From an uncultured Lentisphaerales bacterium (GTDB lineage: Bacteria; Verrucomicrobiota; Lentisphaeria; JABSQK01; UBA12247): a stretch of 64,000 bases of DNA. Shown in pieces: positions 21,365-31,215 of this stretch. The notes beneath the pieces were generated by a model. That model was not told the origin of the DNA, did no database searches, and was given only the letters and a program-made list of their open reading frames with translations. Position 1 is the stretch's first letter. Each line of letters starts with the position of its first letter. Position numbers and translations under genes: made by a program. The stretch covers positions 36,660-100,659 of the forward strand of contig CALSSJ010000044.1 in the NCBI GenBank assembly GCA_943788985.1, in the 5' to 3' direction.

Positions 21365-23223
21365 TCTTCCGGCACCGTCACTCAGTTGGTTGAGTCCTTT
21401 CGCAATGACGAGGGGCAGCCGAGGCAGTGCATCATTCTGTCGCTGGGCAGGCCAAAATCAACGAGGACATTCGCCGCGAGGTCGCCAAAGTCGTCGCAGC
21501 CCGCCTGTATCACGAACCAGAACTGCTTGAACGGCCACTGAGGCCAGAGGCCGCCTGTTAGGTTGATCGTATCGTCAACACTGTCCAGCATTATGGAACA
21601 TCGCCCCCCAGGCGCAAACGCCGCGCCCATCAAGACAACACCAGCTCGGAGGCGATTGATGGCGTGTTGTCCGACAAAATCGACCATACCCACAGCACTA
21701 CCTTGGGCCCCGAGCTTCTAGCCTTGCACGCCTGGAAGCAGCTGAATATGCCCGGTCTGCTGGAGACGCTCGGCTTCAACCAAGCACAATGTGACGCCGC
21801 CGCCGTCAGGGTCGTTAACAGACTCGTGGCCCTCTGCAGCGATTATTTCATGCAAACCTGGCTGACCACCAGTTCCCTCGCCGACCTGCTCCGCAGCGAC
21901 ATCTTGAACTTTGCCGATGACCGCGACTATCGCATCGGCGATAAGCTCCTGGCGGCCAAAGACAAGATCGAAGACCACCTTCCACACGCCCAAAAAGAAC
22001 CCTTCAACCTCCAGCGCACTATCATCCTCTACTACCTGACAAATACGCACTTCGCGGGTGTCTGCGCCAAGAATCCAAAAGCCAAGCGCGGCAAGAACAA
22101 GCAGAAGCGCAACGACTGCCCACAGGTCGTTGTCGGCATGGTCTTCGACGAATTTGGCTTCGAACTGGCACACCAGACCTTCAGCCGTAACACCCGGGAC
22201 TCGACCACACTCACGTTCTTGGTAAACACCCTCAAAAAGCTCACCGATAGCGATCAGGAGTTGGCCGACGCCAAGCCCATTGTCGTCGTCGATGCTGGCA
22301 TCGCGACCATAGACAACCTGCGGCGACTGCGTGAAGAAGGTTTTAGTTGCCTCGTCAATGCCAGTCACTAACAGCGAGAGGTCTAGGCCGATCATTTTCG
22401 CGACGATAGCGGCTTTGAGGCAGTGCCCGGTCGCGAGAAAAACGGCCGAGCGCGAGCCCCTGTTTTGGTTAAAGCTGTCGATCATACTTTCACTGAATAA
22501 CCCACCGGATAAGCCACCGAGGCCAGCGACAGCGAAAACACACCAGAGATCATTGCTGCGCGCTTGGTCTTGTGTAAAAGCGACACTCCCGGTGACAAAG
22601 AACGTGCTATGATCAGCAAGGCCGAGGAGAAACTCCTTGAGCGCCTGCAGAAGCTCGCCACCCGCATCGCCATCGGTCGGTTGCGCAGCAACAACTCGCG
22701 AGTGGTCAGATTCTACGACATCGACTTTCAGGAAGCCAATAAACCTGCGAAAGGCGAGCCTGAGGGCGTCTTGCGCTACACCCGCAAAGACCAACTTTTT
22801 GCTGACAGTCAGTTGGTTATGGGCTGCTACGTACTACGAACCGATCAGCAGGATCTGCCTGCCGAGCAACTTTGGCAGCTATACATCACCTTAGTCCTGG
22901 CCGAAGAGGGGTTTCGGCTACTAAAAACCGACTTAGGCCTGCGCCCGAACTTCCATCAGATCCAAGATTGCGTGGACGGGCACATTTTCATCACCGTGCC
23001 TGCCTACCACGTACTGACGCACATCCTGTACACCTTACGCCAAGGCTTTCTGAGGCATCACAGGCGCAGATCTATCGCCACTTCGACATCGACACGACCG
23101 CCTTGCCACAGAGCAAGGTGATCATCACACCAAAATGACACGAGAAGAACCTGCGACTTTGCAGGGATTCTTTCTTATCTCCCTCATTACCAGAGGCTTG
23201 CGATCCTGAGTGCAAAATTCGGG
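21365..23223 (+). mobile_element. Decayed IS1634-family element (transposase pseudogene); boundaries approximate
   Basis: 'QLVESFRNDEGQPRQ', 'GKNKQKRNDCPQVVVG', 'VVDAGIAT', 'EEGFRLLKTDLGLRPNFHQ...GHIF'; several in-frame stops at 22369-22512. Confidence 0.8.
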
Positions 23224-23680: not shown

Positions 23681-25093
<1,413 letters not shown>

Positions 25094-25460: not shown

Positions 25461-25599
25461 GGTCTCCCTAGAGGTCGCCCTCCCAGTCGTAAAACATCAG
25501 GGCGGCGGACCAGTTTAGAAACTTGAGACTCCTTTGTCGGGTTCCGTCGGTCATTGGCGAAAGACAGACCTGTTAAGATCCTACCTACTCGCCACCCCT

Positions 25600-25616
25600 T
25601 GCAACTGCCGTGCCAA
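25600..25616 (-). promoter_or_regulatory. Sigma-54 (-24/-12) promoter, leftward
   Basis: Minus strand reads TTGGCACGGCAGTTGCA, matching TGGCACG-N4-TTGCA. Confidence 0.85.
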
Positions 25617-25680
25617 TCGAACCAGACGTCGTCTGCAGCCCCACAAAAGACGCCAAAACGCTCCTCACACCGGGTTTTAC

Positions 25681-25770
25681 TGAACCACGAGATCCGATTC
25701 GATTACCAGGCAGGAACTTCCAGTTCCGAAACACTAATTGCGCTGCCCAGAAAGCGGAACTGCAGCTTCT
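25681..25770. promoter_or_regulatory. Three putative enhancer (UAS) sites GGAAC-N5-GTTCC
   Basis: TGAAC-N5-GATCC (25681), perfect GGAAC-N5-GTTCC (25713), GGAAC-N5-CTTCT (25756); spacings 32 and 43 bp. Confidence 0.55.
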
Positions 25771-25846
25771 ACATCGCGGACTCTTGGTCGCTCCCCGAGA
25801 TGCCTACATGCACCATCTTTCAAGGCTGCGCCATGTGTCCCCAGTG

Positions 25847-25863
25847 TTGGCACGCAACATGCA
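25847..25863 (+). promoter_or_regulatory. Sigma-54 (-24/-12) promoter, rightward
   Basis: TTGGCACGCAACATGCA with GG/GC correctly spaced, about 40 bp before GTG 25904. Confidence 0.75.
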
Positions 25864-25903
25864 AACAAGATGTTGTCCGACCTTTTTTCTAGGAGCGATT
25901 TCC

Positions 25904-26701
25904 GTGCAACACCCAAACTTCTCGCTGGCTATCGGCAACGGCCCGATCGTCGCCGCCGCCCTTCACGCAGGCCATCAACTCCGGTCCGAAGTGGAGGCGG
26001 AAATCACTCTTTGCCCCGCGGATAGGCTTCGTGAAGAAGATCCGTATACCGATCGGTGGACTCAGTTTTCCCCGACCCGGCTAGTTGTCCACACCTCTCG
26101 TTTTCAGGTCGACCTGAACCGTCCTCGCGGCAGCGCAGTCTACCGCACCCCCGCAGACGCCTGGGGCCTGCAGGTCTGGCGCGACCGTTGCCCGGACGGC
26201 ATCCTGCAGCGTTCACGTGCAGAGTACGACTCCTTCTACGGCATGGCCGAGCGCGTTTTCGACGACCTAGCCCGCCGCTACGGCCGGTTCGTCGTCTACG
26301 ACCTCCACACGTACAACCACCGCCGTAACGGCCCGAACGCACCACCGTCTCCCCAGAATGAAAATCCCGATGTGAATCTGGGCACAGGCAGTCTCGACCG
26401 CAGCTACTGGGCTCCGCTAGTGCATGCCTTCACGGGCGCATTGCCCAGCCCCGACTCCGGCCAGACTCTGGATGTACGTGAGAATGTGAAGTTCCAAGGC
26501 GGCCACTTTGCTCGCTGGGTTCACGCCAAGTACCCGCACATTGGGTGCGTCCTCTCCATTGAGGTAAAGAAGACTTTCATGGACGAGTGGACCGGAGTAG
26601 CCGACCCCGCACAGGTCACCTTGATTCGCGACAGTCTTGCTGCCACTGTCGATCCAGTCTTGCGGGTCCTCCATTCCGTCTACAACGCCCAATCCGCGTG
26701 A
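25904..26701 (+). CDS. N-formylglutamate amidohydrolase-family protein
   Basis: AGGAG RBS plus GTG; 'ALHAGH', 'REEDPYTD', 'SRFQVDLNR', 'YDLHTY', 'ENVKFQGG', 'IEVKK.FMDE'. Confidence 0.88.
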   Translation: MQHPNFSLAIGNGPIVAAALHAGHQLRSEVEAEITLCPADRLREEDPYTDRWTQFSPTRLVVHTSRFQVDLNRPRGSAVYRTPADAWGLQVWRDRCPDGILQRSRAEYDSFYGMAERVFDDLARRYGRFVVYDLHTYNHRRNGPNAPPSPQNENPDVNLGTGSLDRSYWAPLVHAFTGALPSPDSGQTLDVRENVKFQGGHFARWVHAKYPHIGCVLSIEVKKTFMDEWTGVADPAQVTLIRDSLAATVDPVLRVLHSVYNAQSA

Positions 26702-26705
26702 CCTG

Positions 26706-28611
26706 ATGGCGCTCGACTCCACCATAGTCCAACGCATCCGGGAACGCCTTGCCACCAACCAGCCGCTGCGTTGTCAGGTTCCCGGAGGCGGCGTGCTGAA
26801 CGTAGACCGGCAACTGCCGTTCCTCTGCGTGTTCCGACGTCCTCGCAACGAAATCGACGCGAGCATGGCCAAGCTCGTGCGCGGCGAGGGCGCATATCTG
26901 GTGGGCCGCGGTGATCGTAGCGGGCGTCGCAACACGCGCGAGCTCGTCCAGTTGACCGTTGCCGAGCTCGCCCCACACTTCGGTGCCTTCCTGATTGTGG
27001 AGCTGTGGGCAGCCGCCGAAGCATCAGCGGACATGGCCCCGCATTTTACCCTCGCCGCGCCGGCAAGAACGCCACAGGCGATGCTCGAAACCTTGCAAGC
27101 CGAGCTAGGACGGATGCGCGTCCAGCGACGCCGGGCGCGAGTCACGGTCGAGCGCCTGCCGCCGGTAGCCCCTGGCTTCTCGCCGCTACTTACGCCGGCC
27201 CAAGCCCAGGCGCACAACGTTTTCGTCATCGGGATCGAAGTCGCACCGATCTTTCGCGATCCCACCACGGGAACAGTCTTCCCTCTGGTGTTGCGACGTC
27301 TCCACCGAGGCTTGAGCCTGGCGCTGCGACGTTGCTTCTACGAGTTTGCGGTCTCCGCAACTACCCACCGCCCCGACCACTTCCACACCCTTGGCCGTCG
27401 CGCTATGGTCAAAGCAGTTTGGGATGCGGACGCGGCGCTCGCCCGCATCGACCAGACCGTGGACTTCCTCCTCCTCGTCACCCCCCACCAATGCGGAAGC
27501 CGCATGGCGACGCTTCCGCCGCGACCATTTCGCCAAGGCCCCTGCCTTTCGCTACCGCTCTTTGCCATTCGACCCGGCCAAACTCAAGCGGTCATTGTTT
27601 GCCATCCCCATCGAGCGCGTAGAGGACCCCATGCTGGCCCGCCTCTTCGGCGACGAACGTCAGGACCTTGAACGACGCCTCAGCATGCTCGTAGATCGCA
27701 ACACGCCCAGCTTCCTCTACGGTAGCCTCCAAGTCTACGGTCCTGTCGACGACGCCCTCCTCGACCTGGCCCGTGACATCCTCCAGCGCCTGCCCCCGCA
27801 CCGCTCCGGCTCGGATATAAGGGGCACGGTGGGGGCTGCGAAGTTCGCAGAAGCAGCCCGCGCTGAGATCGCCCGCTGCACCGCGCGTTGTCCGCAGTTT
27901 CGCGCCCGAGTCGAAATACGCGCCGACCTAACCGGCCTGATGGTCTCGCGCGACTGCCTCTACGTAGGTGCCTCGCTGCAAGTCTCAGCCCGGCGCGTCG
28001 AGGCACTCATCCAGCACGAGATCGGCGTCCATATCGCCACCTACTGTAACGGCGCTGACCAGCCGTTCGCCCAGCTACGCCACGGCCTTACCGGCTATGA
28101 AGAACTCCAGGAAGGCCTCGCAGTCTTTGCAGAATACCTGGTTGGCGGCTTCACCGGCCCCCGGCTCCGTCTGCTTGCCGCCCGCGTCGTGGCCGCCCGT
28201 ATGGTCACCGAAGGAAGCGACTTTCTCTCGATCTTCCATGCCCTCCGCGACGAGGGCCAGTTCGATTCCCGTACCGCCTATCTGGTGACCATGCGCGTGA
28301 CCCGCGGTGGTGGTTTCACCAAAGACGCCGTCTATCTGCGCGGCCTGGTCTCGCTGCTGAAGCACCTAGCGGACGGTGGCGAAATTGAACCGCTGTACGT
28401 CGGAAAAATCGCCGAACAGCACATGGCATTTGTCCGTGAGTTACAATGGCGTCGCGTCCTCCGATCGCCCCTTTTCATCCCCTCCTATCTCACCGACGAG
28501 GCCGGCCGCGAACGTCTTGCTGCCGCTCGCACCGGACTGCATGTCTGCGACCTCGTAGGTATCCGCCCGAACCTAACCAGAACCACCATCCGCAAGGCCC
28601 CCCCCTCATGA
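26706..28611 (+). CDS. DUF1704 / QEGLA-motif metallopeptidase (MATCAP-related); frameshift in C6 run near 27481
   Basis: HExxxH 'HEIGVH', 'QEGLAVFAEYL', 'RGGGFTKDAVYLRG'; ORFs 26706- and -28611 join at LVTP/TNAEAAW. Confidence 0.85.
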
Positions 28612-29651
28612 GAATCGCCTTCTTCGTCAACGACATCGCTACCGAGCTCCCCAACTACACGACCACCCGCTTGGCTATGACCGCCACCAACCGCGGCCAC
28701 GACGTCTGGTATGTCGGCGCTGGTGACTTCGCCTACGACCCGGACGAGAGAGTCCGAGCCCGCGCCCGCGGCGCCACCAAGGGCTCCTACAAGTCGCTGG
28801 CCAGCTATCTCAAAGACGTGCAGGGCACCAAGGCCCGATCTGAGCGAATCACCGTGGACGACATCGACGTCCTCATGCTCCGCAACGACCCGGCGACCGA
28901 CCTGAGCCGCCCTTGGGCGCAGTCCGCAGGCATCACCTTCGGTCGCGTTGCCATGCGCCAAGGCGTCATCGTTCTCAACGACCCTGCGTCACTGGCCACA
29001 GCCATGAACAAGATGTACTTCCAGCTCTTTCCGGAAGAAGTCCGCCCGCGCACGCTCATCACCCGTAACCGAAGCGAGATCAAGGCCTTCGCCAAAGAAT
29101 TAGGCGGCACCGTCGTCCTCAAGCCCCTGCAAGGCTCCGGCGGCTCGAACGTCTTCCTCGTGCGGAAGGACGAAATGGCCAACCTTAATCAAATGATTGA
29201 AGCCGTCTCACGAGACGGCTACATCATCGCCCAGGAGTATCTCGAAGCAGCCGTAGACGGCGACACCCGCTTGTTCTTAATGAACGGCCGGCCGCTCCGC
29301 TACAAGGGTCGCTACGCGGCCTTTCGGCGAGGTCGCGGCGAGGACGATATGCGCAGTAACATCCACGCTGGCGGCCACAAGCTCCAGGCCACCATCACCG
29401 ACGCCCACCTGCAGTTGGCCGAGATCGTACGCCCACGCCTGGTCCGGGACGGAATGTTCTTGGTCGGCCTAGACATCGTCGGTGACAAGCTGATGGAGAT
29501 CAACGTCTTCAGCCCCGGCGGTCTGGGCAGCGCCCAGCAGTACGAGAAAGTGAACTTCTCTCACGCCATCATCGACGCTCTCGAAGCCAAGGTCGAGTAC
29601 ATGCGTTACTACCGCCGCAAGTTCGGGAACATTGAGATGGCCACGCTGTAA
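28608..29651 (+). CDS. Glutathione synthetase-like ATP-grasp ligase
   Basis: 'MLRNDP', 'VLKPLQGSGGSNVF', 'AQEYL', 'DTR', 'RSNIHAGG', 'GLDIVGDKLMEINVFSPGG'; ATGA overlap with the upstream gene. Confidence 0.88.
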   Translation: MRIAFFVNDIATELPNYTTTRLAMTATNRGHDVWYVGAGDFAYDPDERVRARARGATKGSYKSLASYLKDVQGTKARSERITVDDIDVLMLRNDPATDLSRPWAQSAGITFGRVAMRQGVIVLNDPASLATAMNKMYFQLFPEEVRPRTLITRNRSEIKAFAKELGGTVVLKPLQGSGGSNVFLVRKDEMANLNQMIEAVSRDGYIIAQEYLEAAVDGDTRLFLMNGRPLRYKGRYAAFRRGRGEDDMRSNIHAGGHKLQATITDAHLQLAEIVRPRLVRDGMFLVGLDIVGDKLMEINVFSPGGLGSAQQYEKVNFSHAIIDALEAKVEYMRYYRRKFGNIEMATL

Positions 29652-29882
29652 ATTGCGCTCCGTGATCCATCGGCAAGAATTCGGTCTTTCGATTATTGTA
29701 GCTTGCCAGGAGGAGCGTGGAGATCGACACCACAGGCAACGCTCTAGTCGCCCCCTTAAACGAGTGCTGGCTTCTGGAAAACGCAGATCGCAGCGTATGT
29801 GAGGAATTGCGCCGTCACAGCCAGCTGGGCCACGCAAACCTCCTCGGGGACGTCTTGAACGGCATCTGCGCTGCCCCAGACC

Positions 29883-30090
29883 TGAACTAGTTCCATTTGC
29901 ATCCCATATGCCCAAAGGATCCGGCAGCTCAGCCTGAAGGGCCTTTAGTTAGCCAGGGATGCACGAAGAATCCCCGATGGCTAATTTCGCCAGCTTCAAG
30001 GCTGCAGGCGACAGTGCTCATCAAATCAATCACCACCGTAAGTCACGATCCAAGTAGCCTATGGGATGCCAGTGAAGTAGTTCCATTTGC
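29883..30090. repeat. 18-bp direct repeat pair (17/18 identical) enclosing a 10-bp inverted repeat
   Basis: TGAACTAGTTCCATTTGC (29883) and TGAAGTAGTTCCATTTGC (30073); GCATCCCATA (29899) and TATGGGATGC (30060). Confidence 0.55.
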
Positions 30091-30199
30091 GTCGTGCCCT
30101 ACGTCGGGGAAAATAGTCCGGGCCGAGCTGCTTTTCTTGAATCTTTCCCTGCAACGCTTCGTCCAGCTCCCATCCCCAAGCTGAGGTCATCAGCAAAGT

Positions 30200-30523
30200 C
30201 GACTCTGGGTATCGAACGCATCGTTAAAAGCATCCAGCTCTGCTATGCTCATGCCGAGTTAGCCCCCGCCTTCCCGCCAGCCTGCCACTGCCGCGATCAC
30301 TTCGGAGAGAACAGCTTCGCTTCGGGATGGGTTGATCTGGAAATGGGGGGCTTCAGAGTGAAACGCCTCAACGGAAGCCTACGGGCCAACCTCCTCTGAG
30401 ATCCAGTTTTTGAGCTCAGGGTAGCGATCAGGAAACGGGTTCACGTCAAAGGCAGGAGACAGTCGCCATTGCCCGTGCACGACGTGGAGAAATGCGTGAT
30501 TGTGTAGGTGATCATCCATCATT
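30200..30523 (-). pseudogene. HipA-family kinase C-terminal remnant
   Basis: Minus strand reads 'DDHLHNHAFLHVVHGQWRLSPAFDVNPFPDRYPELKNWISEEVGP*'; in-frame stop, N-terminus absent. Confidence 0.7.
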
Positions 30524-31215
30524 ATTTACGGGGATCGAAAAGGCAAGGCGTCGAAAGAACTCCTCAATATCGCGCTGCGTATCGCTGCCATAGCAACGCA
30601 GTGCATCGACAAGCTCGGTGTACGTGTTTTACGCGGGGTCGCCTCTGTCGACACCCAGCAAGTTTGCCGCAGAGCCATACGGGATCCGGCCACCATTGCC
30701 CAGGGTCAAGCCGGCCAATCAGAGCAACTGGCAAGCCGGCGCTCAACACGAGGCACGCTTCTGCTGCGTGGATGCCTGCCCCCATCGCCAACTGCAGGGC
30801 AAGCACTGCTCATTTTGTCATAGCCCGATGGTCGCTAACGCTGGGGAATTTCGCAATCGCCAACTGTCCGTCATCGTCGCGGACCGTACGCTTTGGGCGC
30901 AGGCCGCCGAGTGCTTTAACCGTCGAGAGTAGAAGAGCCTGGATTTGGTGGGCGCGTACTTGCTGACCTGTGCCGAGAGGAAAGGCGCCGCGGGCATATC
31001 CCCAAGTTGGCCATCAGCTTCAGCGTTCAGTGCGTCACTGCCACGGCGCCATGATTCGCCACGAGGCTATGTAGGAGGCCGAGATCTCAGCTAAACGCAG
31101 TCACGAAGGCCTGGAAGATTGGGGCGTCCTCGGTTCGGCGGCGAAGTGTTTCCGAACTGAGAATCCCTGCTAAGGTTTGGCACGCGCGAGACCATGGCCA
31201 TCAGGAACAATTAGA

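Follow-up and report, generated by a model that had tools for sequence, protein, structure and literature searches.

The window analysed here is a stretch of 64,000 nucleotides from an uncultured marine Lentisphaerales bacterium (assembly GCA_943788985.1, contig CALSSJ010000044.1, positions 36,660 to 100,659 of the forward strand), and our subject is a run of three genes within it that encode an FGase-family hydrolase (gene 1), a metallopeptidase of the MATCAP family (gene 2) and a GshB-like ATP-grasp ligase (gene 3) (Table 1). All three genes lie on the plus strand, downstream of a gene for a sigma-54 activator. Only four base pairs, CCTG, separate the TGA of gene 1 from the ATG of gene 2 at 26706, and the ATG of gene 3 overlaps the TGA of gene 2 as ATGA; the tight coupling reported in an initial annotation of this DNA is borne out by these coordinates. 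Furthermore, a single contig from a public metatranscriptome (X11) runs from 25893 to 28583 and covers gene 1 and nearly all of gene 2, and a scan of positions 29500-30600 revealed neither a terminator-like nor a sigma-70-like site.

Gene 1 starts with GTG behind TAGGAG, which resembles a ribosome-binding site. Its product matched the Pfam FGase family PF05013 at 74 bits (cut-off 28.9) and retains all of the family-invariant residues (H21, H24, E45, D46, R66, D70, N72, R73, D133, H135 and E220). Searches of the PDB by sequence, with the gene 1 product alone or with a profile of 25 sequences, returned no usable solved relative. An AF2 model of the protein (predicted local distance difference test, pLDDT, 93.7) was most similar to the FGase entries 2q7s_B (Z 23.8, root-mean-square deviation (rmsd) 3.0, 244 aligned) and 2odf (Z 21.9), followed by M14 carboxypeptidases and the poly-gamma-glutamate hydrolases PghP and YndL (Z 10.6-11.2; PghP 11.1, YndL 10.6). 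Gene 1 thus shares both PF05013 and its fold with the HutG family, to which 2q7s and 2odf belong, and its fold with PghP and YndL, but it is not a HutG equivalog, as it scored 28.4 bits against TIGR02017, under the cut-off of 278.75.

Gene 2 had been annotated as one reading frame, which is not how it can be read in the window. Starting at 26706, frame 0 stays open until it meets a stop at 27671, and frame +1 is open from 27346 to 28611; the MATCAP part lies in frame +1 from about position 27487, and the two frames join at a run of six C. Homologues, which read ...DFLLxVTP(T/V)N(A/T)E... at this point, imply five C at 27481-27486. Of the words sampled from this stretch, 54-100% were found in each of 20 public runs, which come from 11 marine and estuary metagenome studies, and contigs from four of four other public runs, representing four studies (X3, X6 and X8 from DNA, X11 from RNA), drop one letter at 27481 while showing no further insertion or deletion over 25500-29800. 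The break is therefore peculiar to this assembly, either as an error or as a rare variant, and, since all four other assemblies lack the extra C, gene 2 is intact in nature. With five C it encodes 260 + 374 = 634 residues, and intact relatives have 626-674. Programmed +1 frameshifting at CCC-C was ruled out because the four other assemblies, including the one from RNA, carry five C. Other homopolymer errors may exist elsewhere in this genome.

The C-terminal part of gene 2 matched PF08014 (MATCAP, formerly DUF1704) at 299.8 bits (cut-off 27) over profile positions 2-354 of 365. Against TIGR02421 the frame +1 piece reached 318.6 bits, compared with a cut-off of 338.65, the first 16 model positions being encoded in the other frame. 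Pairwise similarity to human MATCAP is weak (KIAA0895L, 7z5g, E 7e-5), and in this alignment HEIGVH and QEGLA pair with HEIGTH and EEGLA. The roles of the HExxxH zinc motif and of the (E/Q)EG motif, whose Glu is the third zinc ligand, were taken from the available part of PMC10499314, where the TMCP mutants E281A and E316A are inactive. Structural comparisons for gene 2 were made with the AlphaFold model of a 633-residue homologue, P0001 (pLDDT 87.2), in place of the window protein; residues 267-633 of this model superimposed on human MATCAP (7z6s_C) with a Z of 24.5 and an rmsd of 3.3 over 295 aligned. The peptidase of the module is thus like human MATCAP/TMCP1 (KIAA0895L) and TMCP2 in its PF08014 membership, in its aligned HExxxH motif and Glu of (E/Q)EG, and in its fold.

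The assignment of gene 2 to the MATCAP family in the initial annotation stands, but its first 260 residues, which had been passed over, form a second domain. This region has no match in Pfam or NCBIfam. When 80 such N-terminal domains were aligned with 65 FGases by hhalign, the two groups matched with a probability of 94.9% (E 4e-8, 172 columns), whereas three control pairs all stayed below 1%. Residues 29-231 of the P0001 model found 2q7s as their best match (Z 12.6, 186 aligned), with hydrolases of the same general fold next (Z 9-10). The domain carries a Trp ('ELW') where FGases have the His of 'DLH', and it has no counterparts of the first FGase motifs. Judged from these residues, it is probably a decayed, non-catalytic copy of an FGase.

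Gene 3 matched NF009110 over its full length at 479.9 bits (cut-off 408). This family is named 'glutathione synthetase', a name that is an annotation and not a tested function, and gene 3 fell below both glutathione-synthase equivalogs (TIGR01380, 191.9 bits against a cut-off of 299.05; NF003573, 208.9 against 272). Like E. coli GshB (1gsa, E 1e-38, 136 bits), to which it aligns over its full length, it has both GshB domains and the ATP-grasp core, with PF02955 at 165.6 bits and the GSH-S_N domain PF02951 kept at E 2e-12. RimK structures were matched at E 2e-7 and 33 bits, the RimK-family model TIGR00768 reached 78.1 bits (cut-off 143.4), and no match to the tubulin-tyrosine ligase family PF03133 was found at a Pfam E of 0.01 or less. 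A tree was built from 99 ligases and spans 14 phylum-level groups; in it the GshB-like sequences stood apart with 100% local support. A comparison of 86 GshB-like with 13 canonical GshB sequences showed that the former keep the ATP-grasp core (K135, K172, G176, G179, R221, N251, E297 and N299), while 22 columns are fixed differently in the two groups, including VFSPGG for VTSPTC, N8 for D and Y137 for W, together with two insertions. The ligase nearest to gene 3 in the tree belongs to a full colinear trio on a contig titled Candidatus Bathyarchaeota archaeon, which may be a mis-binned bacterial contig or the product of a transfer.

We also examined the glutathione genes of this organism and its relatives. 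The genome (4.58 Mb, 48 contigs, 83.6% complete) contains a canonical gshB, scoring 323 bits compared with 191.6 for the window ligase, which adjoins a GCS2-family gene on contig C12 (86896-88625); this pair is likely the true glutathione pathway of the genome. No gshA-type gene was found among the window's open reading frames that were scanned, in agreement with the earlier claim; in the whole genome PF04262 gshA had no match, and the sole PF04107 match lies on a different contig from the window. Across 41 related genomes the scores fell into three groups, with a canonical copy at 311-332 bits in 13 genomes, 11 full-length paralogues at 189-228 and a few fragments lower. Four genomes (G007, G012, G014 and G017) have neither a PF04107 or PF04262 match nor a canonical gshB, and as they are 86-91% complete, gshA counts in them as not found and not as absent. 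Three of the four (G007, G012 and G014) hold three ligase copies each, and in G017 the FGase and long MATCAP genes lie at a contig end. In contrast to GshB, ligases of the gene 3 type therefore co-exist with a canonical gshB or occur where no gshA is detectable. Every naming source labels them 'glutathione synthase' (identity is 72-78% among the best 120 listed), a name that is probably wrong. By sequence, gene 3 is a GshB paralogue and not the housekeeping glutathione synthetase, which supports the non-glutathione role proposed for it at the outset; a ligase that makes glutathione in concert with a genomic gshA, the outcome against which that proposal had been set, is not what these comparisons point to.

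The long, two-domain MATCAP form is common, with 2828 proteins at E of 1e-3 or less among 8000 scored. To determine how widely the arrangement occurs, we scanned one genome per species for the long protein alone; 584 stretches were confirmed, from which 79 loci were kept, cultured carriers such as Pontibacter and Sphingobacterium (loci L032 and L064) among them. An FGase gene was present in 67 of these 79 loci, a GshB-like ligase gene in 73 and both in 65, and the order FGase, MATCAP, ligase was colinear in 55. When the count was restricted to loci flanked by 2.5 kb or more on each side, both partners were present in 55 of 59 (the exceptions being L029, L057, L067 and L091). Thus the trio recurs in other bacteria, as the initial annotation had held, and does so across 14 phylum-level groups. 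Among 40 relatives of the window genome the long form occurs in five, and two of these (G007 and G012) carry clusters with one FGase, three long MATCAPs and three ligases each. More than one ligase was seen in 5/79 loci and more than one long MATCAP in 2/79. The ligase paralogues form at least three clades that cross phyla, for instance one of about 343 residues with 99% support, which suggests that the copies are old and probably differ in specificity. In G007, two extra ATP-grasp ligases, of which one has a C-terminal domain of the L-amino-acid-ligase type, and a pyridoxal-phosphate-dependent ornithine/diaminopimelate/arginine decarboxylase lie directly upstream in the same direction (L016, 770-4805); they had no relative in the 79 loci at E of 1e-5 or less and were taken as local neighbours, not as part of the module.

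In two loci, parts of the module share one open frame. In an Alteromonadaceae metagenome-assembled genome (L050, 6965-12193) a 680-residue FGase-MATCAP protein stands beside a long form. Its FGase half keeps 28 of 30 invariants and its MATCAP half carries H449N, E450Q and H454Q (P0001 numbering), whereas in the neighbouring long form it is the MATCAP domain that is live and the FGase-like domain that has decayed. Decay in such a reciprocal pattern suggests that two-domain proteins of this kind function in pairs; extending this to the window, the decayed domain of gene 2 may be a docking site for the free FGase. In a Polyangiales metagenome-assembled genome (L060, 5005-6888), an open frame of 627 residues combines an FGase (13-257) with a GshB-like ligase (281-627), which is possibly a fusion protein, an assembly error being the alternative.

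The promoter and the regulator ahead of the trio were also analysed. The activator encoded upstream matched PF00158 at 227.6 bits and AAA_lid_14 at 87 bits, with weak matches to Response_reg (E 0.17) and HTH_8 (E 0.14). Gene 1 is preceded by the sigma-54-type site TGGCACGCAACATGCA, a second site, TGGCACGGCAGTTGCA, lies on the opposite strand, and an rpoN DNA-binding domain is present in the genome; the claim of a sigma-54 promoter ahead of the trio therefore holds. With at most one mismatch to the consensus these are the only two sites in 64 kb, compared with 0.96 expected, and as at least two sites arose in 26 of 100 shuffles, the count is not significant by itself. It is the placing of the sites that matters: both share the one intergenic region between the activator gene and gene 1, and they point outwards. 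RNA contigs of X11 end at 25579 and begin again at 25893, with none covering 25580-25892, a gap that the DNA runs cover. This gap fits transcription starts at both promoters, although contigs cannot fix a start, and we take it as a weak hint. Among 66 regions reaching up to 300 nucleotides upstream of FGase genes, nine had a sigma-54-like site (0.69 expected), and four of the nine also had an adjacent activator gene. These four activators (L097, L083, L038 and L028) are 35-40% identical to that of the window over residues 28-467, nearly their full length.

The second promoter faces an orphan open reading frame, P0121, whose 5' part is covered by the X11 contig that ends at 25579. P0121 was considered as a conserved target protein of the module and rejected, as neither 40 related genomes nor, at E below 0.5, the other trio loci contain a relative of it. 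Further upstream, before the activator gene, overlapping open reading frames of 358 residues (minus strand) and 185 residues (plus strand) at 21718-23121 have no Pfam match.

Table 1. Features of the three-gene module and its upstream region (window positions)
Feature	Position	Strand	Basis or remark
Sigma-54 enhancer-binding activator, 470 residues: receiver-like region at the N-terminus, AAA+ domain for sigma-54 interaction, weakly matched Fis-type helix-turn-helix at the C-terminus	23681..25093	+	Pfam
Orphan open reading frame P0121, 96 residues	25170..25460	-	GGGAG ribosome-binding site
Sigma-54-type promoter TGGCACGGCAGTTGCA, perfect consensus match	25600..25615	-	Faces the 96-residue open reading frame
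Sigma-54-type promoter TGGCACGCAACATGCA, one mismatch	25848..25863	+	41 nucleotides before gene 1
Gene 1, FGase-family (N-formylglutamate amidohydrolase-like) hydrolase, 265 residues	25904..26701	+	PF05013
Gene 2	26706..28611	+	Two reading frames in the window assembly
Gene 2, N-terminal domain, 260 residues, probably decayed FGase-like	26706..27485	+	hhalign, homologue model
Six-C run shifting gene 2 into frame +1	27481..27486	+	Other assemblies carry five
Gene 2, MATCAP/DUF1704 metallopeptidase domain, 374 residues	27487..28611	+	PF08014, TIGR02421
HEIGVH	28015-28032	+	Zinc motif, gene 2
QEGLA	28108-28122	+	(E/Q)EG motif, gene 2
TKDAVYLRG	28318-28344	+	Gene 2 MATCAP domain
Gene 3, GshB-like ATP-grasp ligase, 347 residues, NF009110/PRK12458 subfamily	28608..29651	+	NCBIfam, Pfam

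We next considered what lies around the module in other genomes. Across the 79 loci, recurrent neighbours included mechanosensitive channels (MscK-type in 12, MscS-like in 5) and ion transporters (MgtE in 8, CorA in 5, CNNM/CorC in 5 and SLC12-like in 4), in addition to sigma-54 activators (10), ABC ATPases (9), Ser/Thr kinases (5), glutamate dehydrogenase (4) and M28 peptidases (4). In G014 the cluster sits among a cation-chloride cotransporter fragment, an MscS-type channel and CorA. A gene pair of matching names and sizes in Photobacterium damselae RM-71 adds an expression response. In RNA-seq data comparing 1% with 3% NaCl (PMC10308900, cited throughout from the part of the article available), A0J47_RS17020, a 'glutathione synthase' gene of 1029 nucleotides that the authors take as glutathione synthetase, was 38.4-fold up at 1% NaCl, and the overlapping A0J47_RS17025, a gene of 1983 nucleotides for a QEGLA-motif protein, was 27.5-fold up. 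Both the sizes of the two products (342 and 660 residues) and the overlap of their genes are as would be expected for a GshB-like ligase coupled with a MATCAP protein of two domains.

Our literature search returned no reported function for bacterial MATCAP relatives, and PA3697 is merely cited, in the available part of one paper, as a regulator of fhp. For the animal enzymes, the same available part of PMC10499314 describes that TMCP1/MATCAP cuts after acidic tails and that animal TMCP enzymes also deglutamylate, and it sets apart substrates with the penultimate glutamate exchanged for another residue.

Taken together, we favour a reading in which the three genes form one transcription unit with a dedicated sigma-54 activator, and their enzymes set the level of a small acidic, glutamate-type peptide other than glutathione; we put its probability at roughly 45%, a little short of even. 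The GshB-like ligase would hold a small, peptide-like acceptor in its GshB-type N-terminal domain, activate the free carboxylate at the acceptor's C-terminus with ATP and add an amino acid there, so that the chemistry would be that of GshB but the substrates would differ. In gene 2, the MATCAP domain would act as a zinc carboxypeptidase that removes C-terminal residues again, while at the opposite end the FGase-like enzyme of gene 1 would cleave an amide of the N-acyl or gamma-glutamyl type. The other domain of gene 2, the decayed FGase-like one, would serve as a non-catalytic docking or substrate-binding partner for the active FGase, and the module as a whole would respond to the cell's ionic or osmotic state. 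Of the two options left side by side in the initial annotation, a non-glutathione small peptide and a tubulin-like cycle on a protein tail, retention of the substrate domain PF02951 favours the former and disfavours the latter.

Several observations weigh against this proposal. Characterised enzymes of the MATCAP family all act on protein tails and not on small peptides, and none of them is bacterial. An operon that combines a synthetase with two hydrolases could equally represent a salvage route or a futile pair. Only a minority of loci have ion-transport neighbours, and the window has none; the Photobacterium pair was matched to the module by product names, gene lengths and overlap and not by sequence, and its induction at low, not high, salt is at odds with a simple role in compatible solutes. 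The structural result for the N-terminal domain of gene 2 came by way of the P0001 model, and P0001 is about 43% identical to the window protein in that domain. The roles given here to individual GshB and FGase residues are presumed ones. Finally, the four loci of the nearest relatives (L016-L019) have no sigma-54-like sites, so sigma-54 control belongs to a subset of the carriers.

The module can also be compared with known systems that join and trim peptides. By analogy, the tubulin tail cycle (TTL/TTLL with MATCAP) resembles it in setting an ATP-grasp ligase opposite a carboxypeptidase, whereas the module has a GshB-type ligase, an extra FGase-like domain on the peptidase, an FGase as third enzyme and no tubulin-like target. 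In Pseudomonas, RimK, a glutamate ligase of ribosomal protein S6, is encoded together with its antagonist peptidase RimB, an aspartic protease. This pair likewise opposes an ATP-grasp ligase to a peptidase, but it includes no FGase and its peptidase is not a MATCAP. In the glutathionylspermidine/trypanothione synthetase-amidase, a single small peptide conjugate is both made and hydrolysed, and the two activities need to be counter-regulated (PMC2427367, in its available part); this system uses other enzyme families and one bifunctional protein in place of an operon.

Among the rival explanations, the one that survives best, although we consider it unlikely, is a write-and-erase cycle on a protein, in which the ligase would add one or more amino acids to a specific protein C-terminus, as RimK does on S6 and TTL on tubulin, and the MATCAP enzyme would remove them. 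The ligase itself speaks against such a cycle, being far closer to GshB than to RimK (136 versus 33 bits, and well under the TIGR00768 cut-off) and keeping the N-terminal domain with which GshB binds the dipeptide, even though its ATP-grasp core is common to RimK-type ligases and RimK structures were matched. Likewise, where ligase and peptidase paralogues cluster in several copies, they could differ in the tails that they recognise, but no conserved small protein or candidate target accompanies the trio, the sole small open reading frame here is an orphan, and an FGase-type amidase would have no obvious role on a protein tail. What the idea retains in its favour comes from the literature: all MATCAP/TMCP enzymes characterised in the available text of PMC10499314 trim protein C-termini, and RimK was co-induced 52-fold in the Photobacterium data (PMC10308900).

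Less probable again is a salvage or catabolic route, in which the hydrolases would degrade an imported or stored glutamate-rich compound and the ligase would only recycle or detoxify an intermediate, with no regulated cycle. A gamma-glutamyl peptide, an N-acyl-glutamate or poly-glutamate fragments are candidate compounds. In favour of such a route, the FGase fold is nearest to HutG-type enzymes and then to poly-gamma-glutamate hydrolases; furthermore, glutamate dehydrogenase and M28 peptidase genes (four loci each) recur nearby, and sigma-54 often controls nitrogen catabolism, which we counted on this side. However, the ATP-spending ligase is the most conserved partner (73/79) and is translationally coupled to the peptidase, and the two multiply together in relatives. 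Moreover, no recurrent peptide uptake transporter was found among the neighbours, where the ABC ATPase cluster of nine loci is of unexamined type. That gene 3 is an ordinary second glutathione synthetase, with the hydrolases as unrelated neighbours, is clearly disfavoured and very improbable: all naming sources and NF009110 use that name and the genome has a GCS2-type candidate gshA, but both equivalog cut-offs are missed, the ligases form a separate, strongly supported clade with canonical-invariant positions changed, a canonical gene adjoins the GCS2 gene on another contig, gshA went undetected in four genomes that carry the module, the trio is kept in 55/59 loci, and fusions join the genes.

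Within the favoured reading, of enzymes that set the level of a small acidic peptide, the peptide could be a reversible store for glutamate-type osmolytes, an idea that we regard as speculative and improbable as it stands. At low salt the ligase would condense acidic amino acids into peptide, which would lower the number of osmotically active anions without losing them, and it would act alongside release through mechanosensitive channels and adjustment of Mg2+ and K+. On upshift the amino acids would be freed again by a two-headed hydrolase, in which the FGase would be docked on the MATCAP protein through the latter's decayed domain. The MATCAP family would then be metabolic in its ancestry.

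These findings bear on a large group of proteins, as bacterial MATCAP relatives number in the thousands and MATCAP was recognised as a tubulin-trimming enzyme only in 2022-2023. The accompanying ligases are very widespread, and their 'glutathione synthase' label, which is probably wrong, would distort predictions of the glutathione pathway in many genomes. Moreover, a shift in salt, to which channels, Mg2+ transporters and salinity link the module, is a concrete condition under which to seek the product. If the osmolyte store were true, bacterial MATCAPs would represent the ancestral, metabolic form of the family, which eukaryotes later turned onto the acidic tails of tubulin.

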